Notes: generated by a model not told the origin, from the letters alone. Counted from the first letter of the stretch, positions 3,263-20,568 are shown. The stretch: 30,523 bases of DNA from a virus (IMGVR_UViG_2737471824_000004:1-30523), one strand, 5' to 3'. Numbers and translations: made by a program.

Positions 3263-3428
3263 GATGGCAGCCTCCGCGATGAATTTAATTAACTCACCAC
3301 CAGAGGTGCTAATCTCATGGGTGGTGAGACGCACAGGGTTAGCACTACCGGTCATCACGGAACCCGGCCAGCCTTGCGGCTGCCCTGCACGCCTCACCAT
3401 AATGCGAATGTGGCTGTGCTTAACGCAT

Positions 3429-3451
3429 AAAAAAACCGCCTGAGCGCGGTT
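3429..3451 (-). terminator. intrinsic terminator in the Rha leader (stem AACCGC/GCGGTT plus U7 on the minus strand)
   Basis: Hairpin at 3434..3451 followed on the minus strand by a 7-T run (plus-strand A-run 3429..3435). Confidence 0.5.
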
Positions 3452-3511
3452 ATGCGCCGTGATTGACTTCGGGGTGCTAATCCCGGCACCCGTTTTATGA
3501 GGTGCAGGTGA

Positions 3512-3739: not shown

Positions 3740-3792
3740 GGGCGGCAGAGCAGTCACGGAGTAAAACTGATACCGCCAAACGTCACCAGAAA
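3740..3792 (-). ncRNA. dicF: DicF small RNA (53 nt), followed by a T-run at 3735..3739
   Basis: Minus strand reads TTTCTGGTGACGTTTGGCGGTATCAGTTTTACTCCGTGACTGCTCTGCCGCCC then TTTTT, matching my recollection of the 53-nt E. coli DicF including its GGCGG/CCGCC terminator stem. Confidence 0.8.
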
Positions 3793-12386: not shown

Positions 12387-12554
12387 ATGACCACTATTAC
12401 CAAAGAACGTATTGAATTGTTCATTAAAAACCCGCTTGAAAACGGGCTTACCCGTGGTGAACAAATGGAACTGGCACGGATTGCGCTGGCATCGCTGGAA
12501 GCAGAGCCGGTTGTGTTCTGGTTTGAAAAATATCAAGAAGGGGCTACGGCATGA
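12387..12554 (+). CDS. hypothetical small protein (55 aa), paralogue of the N-terminal part of 12551..12895
   Basis: Hand translation [12 protein letters not shown]...[15 protein letters not shown]...; RBS AAGGAG. Confidence 0.35.
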
Positions 12555-12895
12555 CGACTTTTACCAGAGAGCAGTTAATAGCTCACGCAGAGGAGACTAT
12601 TGAAGCACAGAGACTGTGCATACCGGGCACAATCGACCATGACATCATCCGCACATATAAGATGGATATTGCTGTTCTGGAAATCGCACTGGTATCGCTG
12701 GCAGCAGAGCCAGCCGGTAAATTGCATGAATACAAACCAGTGGGATATCAGCGTCTGGTCGATGAGTTAACCATGCTGGTAAAGCAGTTAACCTGGCAAC
12801 TGAGGAAAGCGAAGCCAGACTGCAAATTACCGGATAAGGCGATGAGTTATCTGGAGCGGAACGGACTGATAAGCGTGGAGGATATTTTACGATGA
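12551..12895 (+). CDS. hypothetical protein (114 aa)
   Basis: ORF-track ORF; starts [12 protein letters not shown]..., paralogous to the preceding small ORF. Confidence 0.45.
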
Positions 12896-12982
12896 CCTGG
12901 CCTGAAGCATTAACAACGGTAGGAATTGCGATGGCGGTGGCGCTGGTGGTGTATTCGATTTGCCGCTGGGGATAAAAACGGT

Positions 12983-13010
12983 TTGCGGGAAAAGGAGAGT
13001 TAAGTAGAAT
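12983..13010 (+). promoter_or_regulatory. promoter of the hok mRNA (-35 TTGCGG, 16-nt spacer, -10 TAGAAT)
   Basis: Hexamers at 12983..12988 and 13005..13010; predicted start near 13017 coincides with the 5' element complementary to the mRNA 3' end. Confidence 0.4.
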
Positions 13011-13186
13011 TGCAGCGGGTGCTTGAGGCTATCTGTCTCAGGCATGAACACCAAAAGGCAGATAGAGAAAAGCCCCAGTTAACATTACGCGTCCGGCAAG
13101 ACGCTTAACATTAATCTGAGGCTCAATCTATGAACGGCAAATCTAGGTTAGCCTCTTACGTGCCGAAAGGCAAGGAGAAGCAGGCT

Positions 13187-13342
13187 ATGAAGCAGCAAAA
13201 GGCGATGTTAATCGCCCTGATCGTCATCTGTTTAACCGTCATAGTGACGGCACTGGTAACGAGGAAAGACCTCTGCGAGGTACGAATCCGAACCGGCCAG
13301 ACGGAGGTCGCTGTCTTCACAGCTTACGAACCTGAGGAGTAA
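13187..13342 (+). CDS. hokD: Hok/Gef-family type I toxin (51 aa; HokD/RelF-like)
   Basis: MKQQKAMLIALIVICLTVIVTALVTRKDLCEVRIRTGQTEVAVFTAYEPEE: transmembrane helix plus LCEVR...EVAVF signature; AAGGAG RBS; in-frame upstream extension from 13130 is a mok-like leader frame. Confidence 0.75.
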   Translation: MKQQKAMLIALIVICLTVIVTALVTRKDLCEVRIRTGQTEVAVFTAYEPEE

Positions 13343-13410
13343 GAGACTAGGCGGGGGAGAAATCCCTCGCCACCTCTGATGTGTCAGGCATCCTCAATGC
13401 ACCCGCGCTT

Positions 13411-13433
13411 AACCCGCTTCGGCGGGTTTTTCT
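13411..13433 (+). terminator. intrinsic terminator of the hok mRNA (AACCCGC-TTCG-GCGGGTT plus T-run)
   Basis: Direct reading. Confidence 0.6.
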
Positions 13434-13508: not shown

Positions 13509-14123
13509 ATGCAGAATTTATCTCAACAGTTGTTAGAAGCATATGACAAGGAGTGCCGCAAAGAGCTTTCGATCGCGTTAGCACAGGCTTATCTTCATTC
13601 GCATATGAAGGCAAAAGAGTTTGGTTCTTTTTGGGCTCAAGCACAGTCATATTTGCGCTGGTTTTATGCCGATGCATTGCTTGAGAATGCGGCTAAGCGT
13701 GTGGGGCTGGATTTTGAAGTCGGTAGCAATGCTGCTAAAAATTGTAAACACATTGCGATTCACTCGAACAACTGGAAAATGACGGCACATCATTTATCGG
13801 GTAATGCGCCACTTCCTAAGCAGGCATTGTATAGAGCTGTTTACGCTAATCAAAATTATGAATTGAATTTTGGGGATGAAAATGCCGACTCCCTGGATGG
13901 GAGAGCGTCTGGTGGACATGTTTATATGTTACATGATGGCAGTAATCAGCACTTGTCCAAACTGAATTTAACTGTTCCTTCTTCGGATAATTACGGGATT
14001 CTTTATACTGAGTCTTTACCAATTATGACGATGGTAGAAGTTGAAGCAGAAAATGTGGATTCTGAGATTGAAGATAAAATCAAGATTCTTACCGAACAAA
14101 TAATTAAATCACAGCAATCATGA
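13509..14123 (+). CDS. hypothetical protein (204 aa), first gene of a two-gene low-GC module
   Basis: ATG 13509 with AAGGA RBS; stop overlaps the downstream start (ATGA); two TGGTTGACA boxes upstream (13445..13452, 13477..13484). Confidence 0.55.
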   Translation: MQNLSQQLLEAYDKECRKELSIALAQAYLHSHMKAKEFGSFWAQAQSYLRWFYADALLENAAKRVGLDFEVGSNAAKNCKHIAIHSNNWKMTAHHLSGNAPLPKQALYRAVYANQNYELNFGDENADSLDGRASGGHVYMLHDGSNQHLSKLNLTVPSSDNYGILYTESLPIMTMVEVEAENVDSEIEDKIKILTEQIIKSQQS

Positions 14124-15265
14124 GCATGAATATCGCACAAACACCATTTACTGATAAATCGTTTAATCCTCGTCGCCTTGAGGAGGCAAGAGAGGCAAAA
14201 GGGTTGACGATGGCTGAACTTGCCAGAGTGCTCAATATTTCAAGACAAGCTATTTCGTCATTTGAGAAGGGGTTGAAGTCTCCCTCTGCTGATACACTTT
14301 CTGCAATAGCCAAGGTGTTAGGATTTCCAGAACGATTTTTCTTAGCCTCCAGTGCTTCTCCATCTCTGGAGGGGGCGATTCATTTTAGAAGTCGTTCAAC
14401 TGCGACCAAAAAGGCTCGAGTTACAGGGAAAACACGTGGGCGTTGGGCGGCATTAATATTGGATGAATGTCTAAAATATGCTCAATTACCAGATGTGGTT
14501 CTGCCTGAATTCGATATTATTGATTTTGAGGTTCTGTCTCTATCTGATATTGAGGATATGTCCACCCAATTAAGGCGTTTTTGGGGGTTAGGTGATGGTC
14601 CAATACTCAATTTAACTAGACTTGTTGAAAATAAAGGAATCGTGGTTTCTCATTTACCTTCTGGTGAGAAAGTTGATGCCTTTTCGTTCTGGCATAATGG
14701 GCGGCCTTTAATTATGTTAGATAGCTCGAAGACGGCTGTTCGCATGCGATTTAGTCTTGCTCATGAACTTGGCCATTTAATTATGCATAGGGCAGTGGAG
14801 GATGACTACCTGAATGATAAAGAATTATTCGACCTGGTGGAGTTGCAGGCCGATTATTTTGCCTCCAGCTTTTTAATGCCAGCCACGACTTTCGGGCGTG
14901 AATTTTATAGTCCAAATTTATCAGCGTTAGAACGATTAAAACTACGTTGGATTACATCTATCGGTAGTATTGCCATGAGGAGTCATAGCCTTAAGTTAAT
15001 CAGCGATAATCAGAAAAGCTATATATTTAAGCAATTAGCGCCATTCCATCGTAGGGAGCCGTTAGATGATGCAATCCCAAAAGAAGAGCCTGAGTTACTT
15101 AATAAGTTACTTTTACTTCTTGATAAGCATTCAATCATAAAGGTAACTGAGTTAACTGATATCTTTGCTCTTCCCTTAAATGAGTTATCTGCAATTACAC
15201 GATTTAAAGAATCAGATATGATTCATTCTGACAATGTTATTTCATTTACCATAAAACAAAAATAA
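14120..15265 (+). CDS. XRE-family HTH fused to ImmA/IrrE-type zinc metallopeptidase (COG2856-like), 381 aa with C-terminal extension
   Basis: HTH LTMAELARVLNISRQAISSFEKG; HEXXH motif LAHELGHLIMH. Confidence 0.75.
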   Translation: MSMNIAQTPFTDKSFNPRRLEEAREAKGLTMAELARVLNISRQAISSFEKGLKSPSADTLSAIAKVLGFPERFFLASSASPSLEGAIHFRSRSTATKKARVTGKTRGRWAALILDECLKYAQLPDVVLPEFDIIDFEVLSLSDIEDMSTQLRRFWGLGDGPILNLTRLVENKGIVVSHLPSGEKVDAFSFWHNGRPLIMLDSSKTAVRMRFSLAHELGHLIMHRAVEDDYLNDKELFDLVELQADYFASSFLMPATTFGREFYSPNLSALERLKLRWITSIGSIAMRSHSLKLISDNQKSYIFKQLAPFHRREPLDDAIPKEEPELLNKLLLLLDKHSIIKVTELTDIFALPLNELSAITRFKESDMIHSDNVISFTIKQK

Positions 15266-17497: not shown

Positions 17498-17560
17498 TCC
17501 TCACGCGTCAGCAAAATCTGGCGTCGGGATTAGGAACCCCGGATAGAGACCGCGACAGAT

Positions 17561-17583
17561 ACACGCCGCGAGCGTGTTTTTTA
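17561..17583 (+). terminator. tR'-like intrinsic terminator (ACACGC-CGCGA-GCGTGT plus T6)
   Basis: Direct reading; about 70 nt downstream of the pR'-like promoter. Confidence 0.5.
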
Positions 17584-17745
17584 TTGTCGTATGCACGCGC
17601 ACATCTGAATTATGGTGGGGCGTATGGGGGAGCTGAAAGGCTCGCCGGTTGGTTTCCCGGTAGTTCCTAACCCTGTACGTCTCACCACCCGATGATTAGG
17701 AACCTGACGGTGGTGATAGTTTAGAAACCACTAGAGGGCGTCATT

Positions 17746-18309
17746 ATGACAACTCAAATCTCTGTTGAAACTCTCTCCCCGATCACCCATAACCAGATTC
17801 CTGTTATTACCACTGAACTTTTGGCGCAGCTTTATGGCACCGAAATTCTGAATATCCAGGTTAACTTCACCAGAAACAAAGAGCGTTTTGTCGCAGGAAA
17901 GCACTTTTTTAAAGCAGCGGGTGAGGAATTAAAAAAATTGCGACTTACTTTAAGTAAGTCACAAAATCCCATCTCTCCCAAAACCCGCTTCCTCATCCTA
18001 TGGACAGAACGCGGAGCTGCCCGCCACGCAAAAATGCTGGAAACAGATCAGGCGTGGGAAGTATTCGAAAAACTGGAAGACTGTTATTTCAGCCAGAAAC
18101 AGCCACCAGCAACACAAAACTCCCCCACCGAAAATGATGGATGCGCATTACTGATCCACTTCGATAAACACGGTCAGGTCGACTTCACGGAAAAAGTACC
18201 CGCCGATGCGATGGTATGCACTCTGGAACGGTTCAAATTTTATCTGGAACAACGCGGCTGGATCGTTGCCAGTAAAGAGCAACTGGTGGAACGACTGATG
18301 CGACTTTAA
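17746..18309 (+). CDS. ORF6N/KilA-N-type antirepressor-like protein with the same C-terminal domain as the Rha protein (187 aa)
   Basis: N-terminal ITTELLAQLYGTE...NKERFVAGKHFF...LWTERGAARHAKML resembles the ORF6N domain; C-terminus LLIHFDKHGQVDFTEKVPADAMVCTLERFKFYLEQRGW parallels the Rha C-terminus; RBS GAGGG. Confidence 0.65.
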   Translation: MTTQISVETLSPITHNQIPVITTELLAQLYGTEILNIQVNFTRNKERFVAGKHFFKAAGEELKKLRLTLSKSQNPISPKTRFLILWTERGAARHAKMLETDQAWEVFEKLEDCYFSQKQPPATQNSPTENDGCALLIHFDKHGQVDFTEKVPADAMVCTLERFKFYLEQRGWIVASKEQLVERLMRL

Positions 18310-20221: not shown

Positions 20222-20513
20222 ACAACGAATCCTTCTGATCTGCTTTTGCGGGGCTTTTTTGTATCCGCTCCATGCCCGGCGTATAAGCGGAGGTTGGTCA
20301 GTTTTCTAAAAATTGAAATACCTCACAATTCAGCCAGTTAATGGTTGTTTGTCTGGCGAAGAGTTTGTAAATAAAAAAACGCATGGTGAATCCCCCTAAG
20401 CGGCGGGGCGAATCAGCAGTCAGTTCTGGGATAATCGCGGGTTTGTATGCTGATGCCGGACTCACCGGGAGGCACCCGGCACCATGCATCATGGTCATCC
20501 CCTTGTATGATAC

Positions 20514-20568
20514 CCCTCTCCGGAGGGGTATTTTTTGGATAAAAAAGCCCGCGCTGGGAGGCACGGGC
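20514..20568. terminator. back-to-back terminator-like hairpins (plus: CCCCTC-TCCG-GAGGGG plus T6 at 20514..20537; minus: hairpin 20547..20568 with T6 on the minus strand)
   Basis: Direct reading. Confidence 0.4.

Follow-up and report, generated by a model that had tools for sequence, protein, structure and literature searches.

The viral DNA analysed here, 30,523 nt in all (IMGVR_UViG_2737471824_000004; hereafter the window), carries with high confidence a complete hok/mok/sok type I toxin-antitoxin cassette of the hokD/hokW subfamily, located in the nin region of a lambdoid prophage. Sequence reading, folding and homology together place all hok/mok/sok elements in canonical order within 12983-13433, read on the + strand (Table 1), and counterparts were found for every mRNA element of the plasmid R1 system, namely tac, the metastable hairpin, ucb, dcb, fbi and the terminator. 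The evidence obtained here consists of these sequence elements, their predicted pairings, and the conservation and covariation of both. That the peptide is toxic, that sokW exists and acts as an antitoxin, and that HokW is produced when the prophage is induced has been shown in close homologues, while 3' processing and the order of the refolding steps are what we infer from plasmid R1.

Elements of the cassette

Table 1. Coordinates of the features of the hok/mok/sok cassette, numbered from the first base of the window
Feature	Coordinates	Strand	Details
hok promoter	12983..13010	+	-35 TTGCGG 12983-12988, 16-nt spacer, -10 TAGAAT 13005-13010; assigned by position and homology
Full-length hok mRNA, about 415 nt	13017..~13431	+	predicted ends
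tac (translational activator element)	13017..13028	+	GGGUGCUUGAGG; C13016 can supply a 13th pair
Metastable 5' hairpin, 3' arm	13035..13045	+	predicted to hold tac during transcription
ucb (upstream complementary box, mok anti-SD)	13070..13078	+	AAGCCCCAG
mok Shine-Dalgarno	13118..13121	+	GAGG, 8 nt ahead of ATG 13130; invariant in 37 homologues
mok reading frame, 70 codons	13130..13342	+	in frame with hok, stop codon in common
dcb (downstream complementary box)	13150..13155	+	AGCCUC
hok Shine-Dalgarno	13172..13177	+	AAGGAG, 9 nt ahead of ATG 13187; overlaps the opposite-strand Sok -35
hok toxin gene, 51 aa	13187..13342	+	MKQQKAMLIALIVICLTVIVTALVTRKDLCEVRIRTGQTEVAVFTAYEPEE
fbi (fold-back inhibitory element)	13392..13405	+	CCUCAAUGCACCCG; U13398 bulged
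hok mRNA intrinsic terminator	13411..13433	+	AACCCGC-UUCG-GCGGGUU then UUUCU; hairpin present in MFE structure
Sok promoter	13145..13173	-	-35 TTGCCT 13173-13168, 17-nt spacer, -10 TAACCT 13150-13145; assigned by sequence and homology
Predicted Sok antisense RNA, ~71 nt	13138..~13068	-	transferred from the sokW misc_RNA of AF125520 by alignment

The toxin gene encodes a member of the Hok family (Pfam PF01848 HOK_GEF, 81.6 bits against a cut-off of 22, E = 3e-23) that is 100% identical (51/51) to HokD/RelF of K-12 (WP_000813254.1) and identical to HokW at 46 of 51 residues. HokD, the same peptide, has served as a toxic control (bioRxiv 10.1101/2025.08.07.668861). The mok start codon lies 57 nt upstream of that of hok, giving mok a lead of 19 in-frame codons, equal to that in mokW of phage 933W and in the R1-type locus.

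The leader upstream of hok is matched over its full length by an Rfam model, RF01794 'sok antitoxin (CssrC)', at 112.4 bits against a gathering threshold of 59 (13017-13192 on the + strand, model positions 1-157). The consensus of this model begins GGGUGCUUGAG and finishes at the hok AUG. Because the + strand match spans the interval from the 5' end of the hok mRNA to the hok AUG, the model describes the sense leader of that mRNA, and we rejected the reading of the match as a + strand antisense RNA. It follows that annotations derived from RF01794 misplace 'sok' in both strand and extent; the match supports the hok leader, and the Sok gene by implication alone. Sub-threshold Rfam matches in the 3' UTR to isrK (26 bits against a threshold of 50) and to rsmX were set aside as chance hits in a hairpin-rich 3' end.

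The hok promoter is identical in 933W, and its -10 box aligns with the TATGAT box of the R1-type locus; it agrees with consensus at 8 of 12 positions, the -35 box being poor. The predicted 5' end of the transcript, G13017, coincides with the start of the RF01794 model and lies 6-7 nt past the -10 box, and the predicted 3' end lies just after the terminator hairpin. A consensus scan for promoters and terminators (threshold 9/12) listed none of the hok promoter, the Sok promoter and the hok terminator. The two promoters went unlisted because, at 8/12 and 7/12, they fall below that threshold, and the terminator was probably missed since its stem can absorb two of the five T's; the negative scan was therefore treated as uninformative.

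A previous reading of the sequence alone (hereafter the sequence-only reading) had proposed a complete hok-type type I locus comprising a Hok-family toxin, a promoter ahead of it and an in-frame mok-like leader. The HOK_GEF and RF01794 matches, together with the presence of all defining elements in order, bear out this proposal and each of its parts.

One further feature of the toxin gene concerns its mRNA. The codon for Tyr47 of Hok is TAC and the next base is G (13325-13328, + strand), and the surrounding TTACGAA is invariant in 37 homologues. A-to-I editing by TadA at TACG is reported to recode Tyr to Cys in the K-12 hokC, hokD and hokE mRNAs (PMC5630033).

Pairing of the mRNA ends and alternative conformers

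The two ends of the predicted hok mRNA are complementary, as the sequence-only reading had described correctly to the base: CGGGTGCTTGAGG (13016-13028) and CCTCAATGCACCCG (13392-13405) are joined by 13 base pairs that leave a single U (13398) bulged. The isolated tac/fbi duplex has an energy of -22.6 kcal/mol. Folding of 13016-13433, the segment put forward for this check, gives an MFE structure of -170 kcal/mol (z = -6.6) that contains the end pairing, in agreement with the long-range fold-back proposed earlier; for the full-length mRNA the MFE lies between -168.9 and -170 kcal/mol (z = -6.6), and no shuffled sequence folds as well.

Two controls address how often such a duplex would arise by chance. 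Its energy was matched by 28 of 5000 dinucleotide shuffles of the 3' UTR (0.56%) and by 3 of 4301 places of the same geometry in the window. The complementarity is thus real and uncommon; it is not decisive on its own. It could in principle be a chance match of two segments rich in G+C with no regulatory role, since the 3' UTR is itself G+C-rich and, because 0.56% of its shuffles reach the duplex energy, the match taken alone is not overwhelming.

Comparison with related loci bears directly on this alternative. A scan with the Hok peptide, using one genome per species, gave 53 loci, of which 37 non-identical homologues were used; they come from Escherichia, Kluyvera, Pseudocitrobacter, Citrobacter, Photorhabdus, Pantoea, Erwinia, Kalamiella and further Enterobacteriaceae, and include phage 933W. 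A search for duplexes across the entire upstream and downstream zones yielded long pairings that could not be interpreted; a 14-nt tac probe was used instead, and it found its best partner 353-396 nt downstream in the 37 homologues. On a MAFFT alignment of whole transcripts, RNAalifold predicted the inner six end pairs (tac 2-7) unaided. In the raw MAFFT alignment 90% of tac/fbi cells are paired, a figure that falls to 32-56% with the partner shifted by one to three columns. The unbulged fbi elements of Photorhabdus, Pantoea and Erwinia sit one column out of register in this alignment, and pairing in the outer half of tac/fbi is understated for that reason. With the register corrected for each sequence, 36 of the 37 homologues retain 12 tac/fbi pairs, the exception being a single mismatch in one Photorhabdus copy.

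Compensatory changes affecting both sides of the duplex occur at three positions of tac among these 37 sequences. Position 5 pairs with fbi as U-A in 23, C-G in 11 and U-G in two, with one mismatch; position 12 as G-C in 29, G-U in seven and A-U in one; and position 13 as G-C in 21, A-U in 15 and G-U in one. Loss of the complementarity in homologues had been named in advance as grounds for abandoning the proposal, and the pairing is instead kept across the set. Recurrence at the same distance from the 5' end, double-sided change at three positions, independent recovery by RNAalifold and the drop in the slid-register controls leave the chance reading with a vanishingly small probability, and at the level of sequence comparison we regard it as already refuted.

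The same tac sequence has a second predicted partner close by. In the MFE structure of 13017-13045, positions 13019-13029 pair with 13035-13045 to form a metastable hairpin of 11 bp (-16.5 kcal/mol). Across the 37 homologues 96% of its cells are paired, compared with 30-52% when the partner is slid; three pairs have changed on both sides, and 0 of 500 shuffles score as high. Positions 5, 12 and 13 of tac covary with both fbi and the metastable partner. Gultyaev et al. are said to have reported such 'coupled covariation' for the hok family in 1997, and the double covariation of tac seen here is that pattern.

Folding of the full-length RNA further pairs ucb (13071-13078) with the mok SD region (13116-13123), so that the mok SD is sequestered by ucb, and pairs the hok SD with 13154-13159. 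The ucb core is invariant in the 37 homologues and its flanking stem covaries (AU in 25, GC in 12); the hok SD is invariant in them except at two positions, which are conserved at 90% or more. When the RNA is ended at 13391, tac (13017-13024) pairs with ucb (13070-13076) and the mok SD (13118-13123) pairs with dcb (13150-13155), the latter forming an antisense-target hairpin. The four core pairs of mok SD/dcb are invariant or nearly so in the 37 homologues (one G-U), and the outer two are less well kept, being paired in 31 and 6 of the 37, respectively. Because the core columns are invariant or nearly so, they yield no covariation signal for or against tac/ucb and mok SD/dcb.

These two folds reproduce the conformers described for plasmid R1, in which the closed full-length RNA has tac paired with fbi and the mok SD sequestered by ucb, the open 3'-trimmed RNA has tac/ucb and mok SD/dcb, and a metastable 5' hairpin forms during transcription (PMC9841398). 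The open form is sensitive to the 3' end assumed. With ends at 13380, 13385 and 13395 the MFE folds are different ones, where ucb continues to pair with the mok SD, and 13391 is the only tested end-point with the open conformer as MFE. Given this fragility, the refolding step rests on the R1 precedent.

The predicted Sok antisense gene and related cassettes

On the minus strand, the window is predicted to carry a cis-encoded Sok gene whose promoter lies over the hok SD region and whose RNA would be complementary to the mok translation start. The promoter is base-for-base identical to that of 933W, occupies a position equivalent to TTGCGC-17-TATCCT of the R1-type locus, and matches consensus at 7 of 12 positions. 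The predicted RNA begins 7 nt past the -10 box and comprises a free 5' tail of 14 nt over the mok AUG (13138-13125), a long hairpin (13124-13070) and a U-run; it folds with -32.9 kcal/mol (z = -5.5). An antisense Sok-like RNA had been anticipated over the leader at 13100-13190. Its strand agrees with the gene that aligns with sokW, and its range has to be shifted to the promoter and RNA positions given in Table 1.

The homologous system supplies functional information by analogy. In 933W, sokW is annotated as a 71-nt RNA (AF125520). In Sp5/933W, HokW arrests growth and sokW expressed from its own promoter prevents this arrest (Takada et al. 2021, PMC8621323). Protection is lost in a 'pro-less' sokW carrying a mutation of the same -10 box (primer YO-421), and is regained in part when sokW is provided in trans. 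Both hokW and sokW RNAs were visible on northern blots, and shorter, uncharacterised hokW RNAs are reported; after mitomycin C, sokW disappears and HokW then appears, in a RecA-dependent manner, and deletion of the locus halves the release of Sp5 phage (PMC8621323).

The window and the 933W/Sakai prophage 5 hokW-sokW locus share 93.5% DNA identity over 12983-13414. Both are borne by prophages, with mok in frame and a 71-nt Sok at the same position, and the hok and Sok promoters, tac, ucb, dcb and both SD sequences are identical. In fbi one base differs, 933W having C for U13398 of the window. The differences are otherwise concentrated in a few places. Over 13133-13144, in the Sok 5' tail and mok codons 2-5, 7 of 12 bases are changed, and the C-terminus of Hok reads FTAYEPEE in the window and FVDYESEK in HokW. 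Similarity to 933W (L001, 1925-1975) stops a few bases past fbi, where the window (13406-13433) continues into the GC-rich terminator hairpin that 933W lacks. The terminator is present in a K-12 hokD-type homologue (L006), whereas unrelated sequence stands in its place in 933W. Because the sequence beyond fbi is unrelated between the window and L006 on one side and 933W on the other, the 3' tail to be trimmed differs between the subtypes.

The region corresponding to the Sok 5' tail is also the most variable more generally. Across 14 related cassettes, no part of the transcribed unit varies more than 13123-13142 (0.29-0.44 differences per site), a segment that covers this tail together with mok codons 2-5. 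Diversification of antisense specificity among co-resident copies is a possible explanation.

Like the window cassette, hokD (relF) of the K-12 Qin prophage lies in a lambdoid prophage upstream of a DUF968 (ydfU-type) gene, and its DNA is 98.1% identical over 13173-13431, fbi and terminator included. In K-12, however, relB-relE stands directly upstream, and the hok promoter, tac, ucb, mok start, Sok RNA and Sok -10 box are absent. K-12 hokD is thus a remnant of the complete form carried by the window.

The plasmid R1 hok/sok (parB) system agrees with the window in the order and spacing of all elements. Its 5' end likewise reads GG(C/U)GCUUGAGGCU, fbi lies near the 3' end, the Sok -35 box overlaps the hok SD with a 17-nt spacer, mok starts 19 codons upstream in frame, and the conformers predicted for the full-length RNA and for the RNA ending at 13391 are the same. 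The R1 system is carried by a plasmid whereas that of the window is carried by a prophage and has one bulge in its tac/fbi stem, and the Sok/target hairpin is 18-20 nt longer in the window than in R1. In a three-way alignment of the window, 933W and the R1-type locus the mean column identity is 77%, the R1-type row being by far the most divergent; HokW and R1 Hok are 44% identical (PMC8621323).

Related DNA is widespread in E. coli. Megablast found it in 4935 of 5426 complete genomes (>90%), at up to nine places per genome, and among the matches listed every full-length one is annotated hokD. Several individual relatives are damaged. One E. coli copy (L005) has a degenerate 5' end without the tac motif, a hokC-type copy (L015) lacks fbi at the corresponding site in the flank that was fetched, and a Shigella flexneri copy (L047) encodes a scrambled Hok. 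These three show how such cassettes become inactivated, unlike the intact copy of the window.

Proposed action, role and significance

By analogy with R1, the weak hok promoter would give rise to a stable mRNA of about 415 nt from G13017. During transcription, tac would be held in a local hairpin with 13035-13045, and in the finished RNA it would pair with fbi (13392-13405), yielding the closed form. As this form pairs the mok ribosome-binding site with ucb, neither Mok nor the coupled Hok would be translated and Sok would bind poorly. Slow exonucleolytic trimming from the 3' end, for which R1 provides the precedent, would then take off fbi; slow 3' processing is what activates translation of the R1 mRNA (PMC9841398). 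Once fbi is gone, tac would switch to ucb and the mok start would be exposed in the target hairpin (mok SD/dcb), making the RNA translatable. While synthesis of the short-lived 71-nt Sok continues, the free 5' tail of this RNA would pair across the mok start and RNase III would destroy the duplex. If Sok synthesis stops, the processed mRNA would be translated and the 51-aa Hok would damage the inner membrane. In the Sp5 homologue, Hok production comes on prophage induction (PMC8621323).

The surroundings of the cassette are those of a lambdoid prophage, with replication genes and nin-type small ORFs leading up to hok, and DUF968, RusA, an anti-repressor module, a methyltransferase, lysis genes and terminase beyond it. 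The cassette has the same orientation as its neighbours in the window, in four further lambdoid settings and in a P1-like one.

Several neighbouring features were recorded alongside. Two overlapping ORFs directly downstream of hok (13509-15265, + strand) match the RosmerTA anti-phage defence pair in PADLOC. The first, 13509-14123 (204 aa), matches RmrT with E = 7.5e-10, and the second, 14120-15265 (381 aa), matches RmrA with E = 5.5e-102 and contains HTH_3 and Peptidase_M78 domains; Pfam and NCBIfam gave no match for the flanking ORFs 12551-12895 and 13509-14123. The adjoining RosmerTA-like pair places the hok cassette in a small toxin/defence island of the nin region. On the upstream side, a putative hydrophobic ORF of 27 codons (12892-12975, + strand) overlaps the stop codon of the preceding gene. 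Its protein is 77-96% conserved, it has an internal stop in one copy (L002), and it is annotated in one phage record alone; because DNA similarity to the hok loci of 933W, L004, L022 and L056 starts exactly at its start codon, it marks the left edge of the mobile cassette. Elsewhere in the window, RNA matches at 3317-3505 (-), 3740-3791 (-), 17505-17692 (+) and 20352-20540 (+) comprise two isrK + C4 antisense-RNA modules in opposite orientations, one of them on the + strand, together with a DicF sRNA and an STnc100 sRNA. The + strand module lies just upstream of an ORF6N anti-repressor-like gene (17746-18309), and the prophage thus has two immI-like modules.

An intact appearance does not by itself establish activity. 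According to earlier work cited in bioRxiv 10.1101/2025.08.07.668861, chromosomal hokA, hokB and hokC were tested and gave no post-segregational killing, so intact architecture is no proof that a cassette is active. The window copy might accordingly be a physiologically silent relic in which Hok never reaches amounts that matter, a state that has been proposed for chromosomal hok loci in laboratory E. coli. Four of five K-12 loci are reported to be inactive (PMC5630033), both promoters here are weak by consensus, and decayed homologues exist, namely the copy without tac (L005), the copy with scrambled Hok (L047) and K-12 hokD, which is without everything left of 13173. Those decayed copies differ from the window, however, where no inactivating lesion was seen in either promoter, in tac, ucb, the mok SD and ATG, the hok ORF, fbi or the terminator. 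Across the 14 related cassettes there is moreover almost no variation in the hok coding region (0-0.06 differences per site over 13173-13322, and 0.13-0.17 in the last 20 nt), which points to selection, and the 93.5% identical hokW-sokW is active in its native prophage (PMC8621323). We consider a silent relic quite improbable.

A functional cassette need not serve mainly to maintain the prophage. We give roughly even chances to a main role of another kind, either help with lysis and phage release on induction or abortive infection against other phages. In Sp5, the RecA-dependent loss of sokW and rise of HokW, and the halving of phage release on deletion, fit such a role (PMC8621323), as does the lowering of T4 plating by R1 hok/sok cited in the same source. 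In the window, the cassette adjoins the RosmerTA-like defence pair (RmrA, E = 5.5e-102) and in every lambdoid context examined it runs in the direction of the early-right operon. The genomic position speaks against such a role: the cassette lies in the nin region here, whereas the 933W/Sp5 locus is elsewhere, near the right end of the prophage map. Both lysis help and phage exclusion would, in addition, be compatible with maintenance.

A more speculative proposal, which we hold to be doubtful, treats the cassette as a built-in sensor of prophage induction and, separately, the variability of the Sok 5' tail as insulation between co-resident cassettes. The cassette is embedded in, and co-oriented with, an antiterminated early operon in every lambdoid context examined. 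After induction, read-through may meet the convergent Sok promoter head-on and shut Sok off, and it may also make 5'-extended hok transcripts that are unable to form the tac/fbi clamp. If true, this would explain the RecA-dependent loss of sokW and appearance of HokW in Sp5. The variable Sok 5' tail (13123-13142), for its part, may insulate up to nine co-resident cassettes from each other's antitoxins.

Whatever its main role, the complete hok/mok/sok cassette of the window belongs to a family that is well known. hok/sok has been a textbook type I toxin-antitoxin system since the 1980s. For the hokW-sokW subtype, mok and sok are annotated in 933W (AF125520), and the locus was experimentally characterized in Sp5 in 2021 (PMC8621323). 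With the family in textbooks and the subtype already annotated and characterized, the cassette carries little weight as a discovery; it is an intact member of a well-studied family, and its identification is correct but ordinary. Its use lies in base-level coordinates for every regulatory element, including an unannotated Sok gene, of a cassette that pipelines label only 'hokD'. It also shows the K-12 reference copy to be a remnant of the complete form, and it illustrates clearly how a single tac position covaries with two alternative pairing partners.
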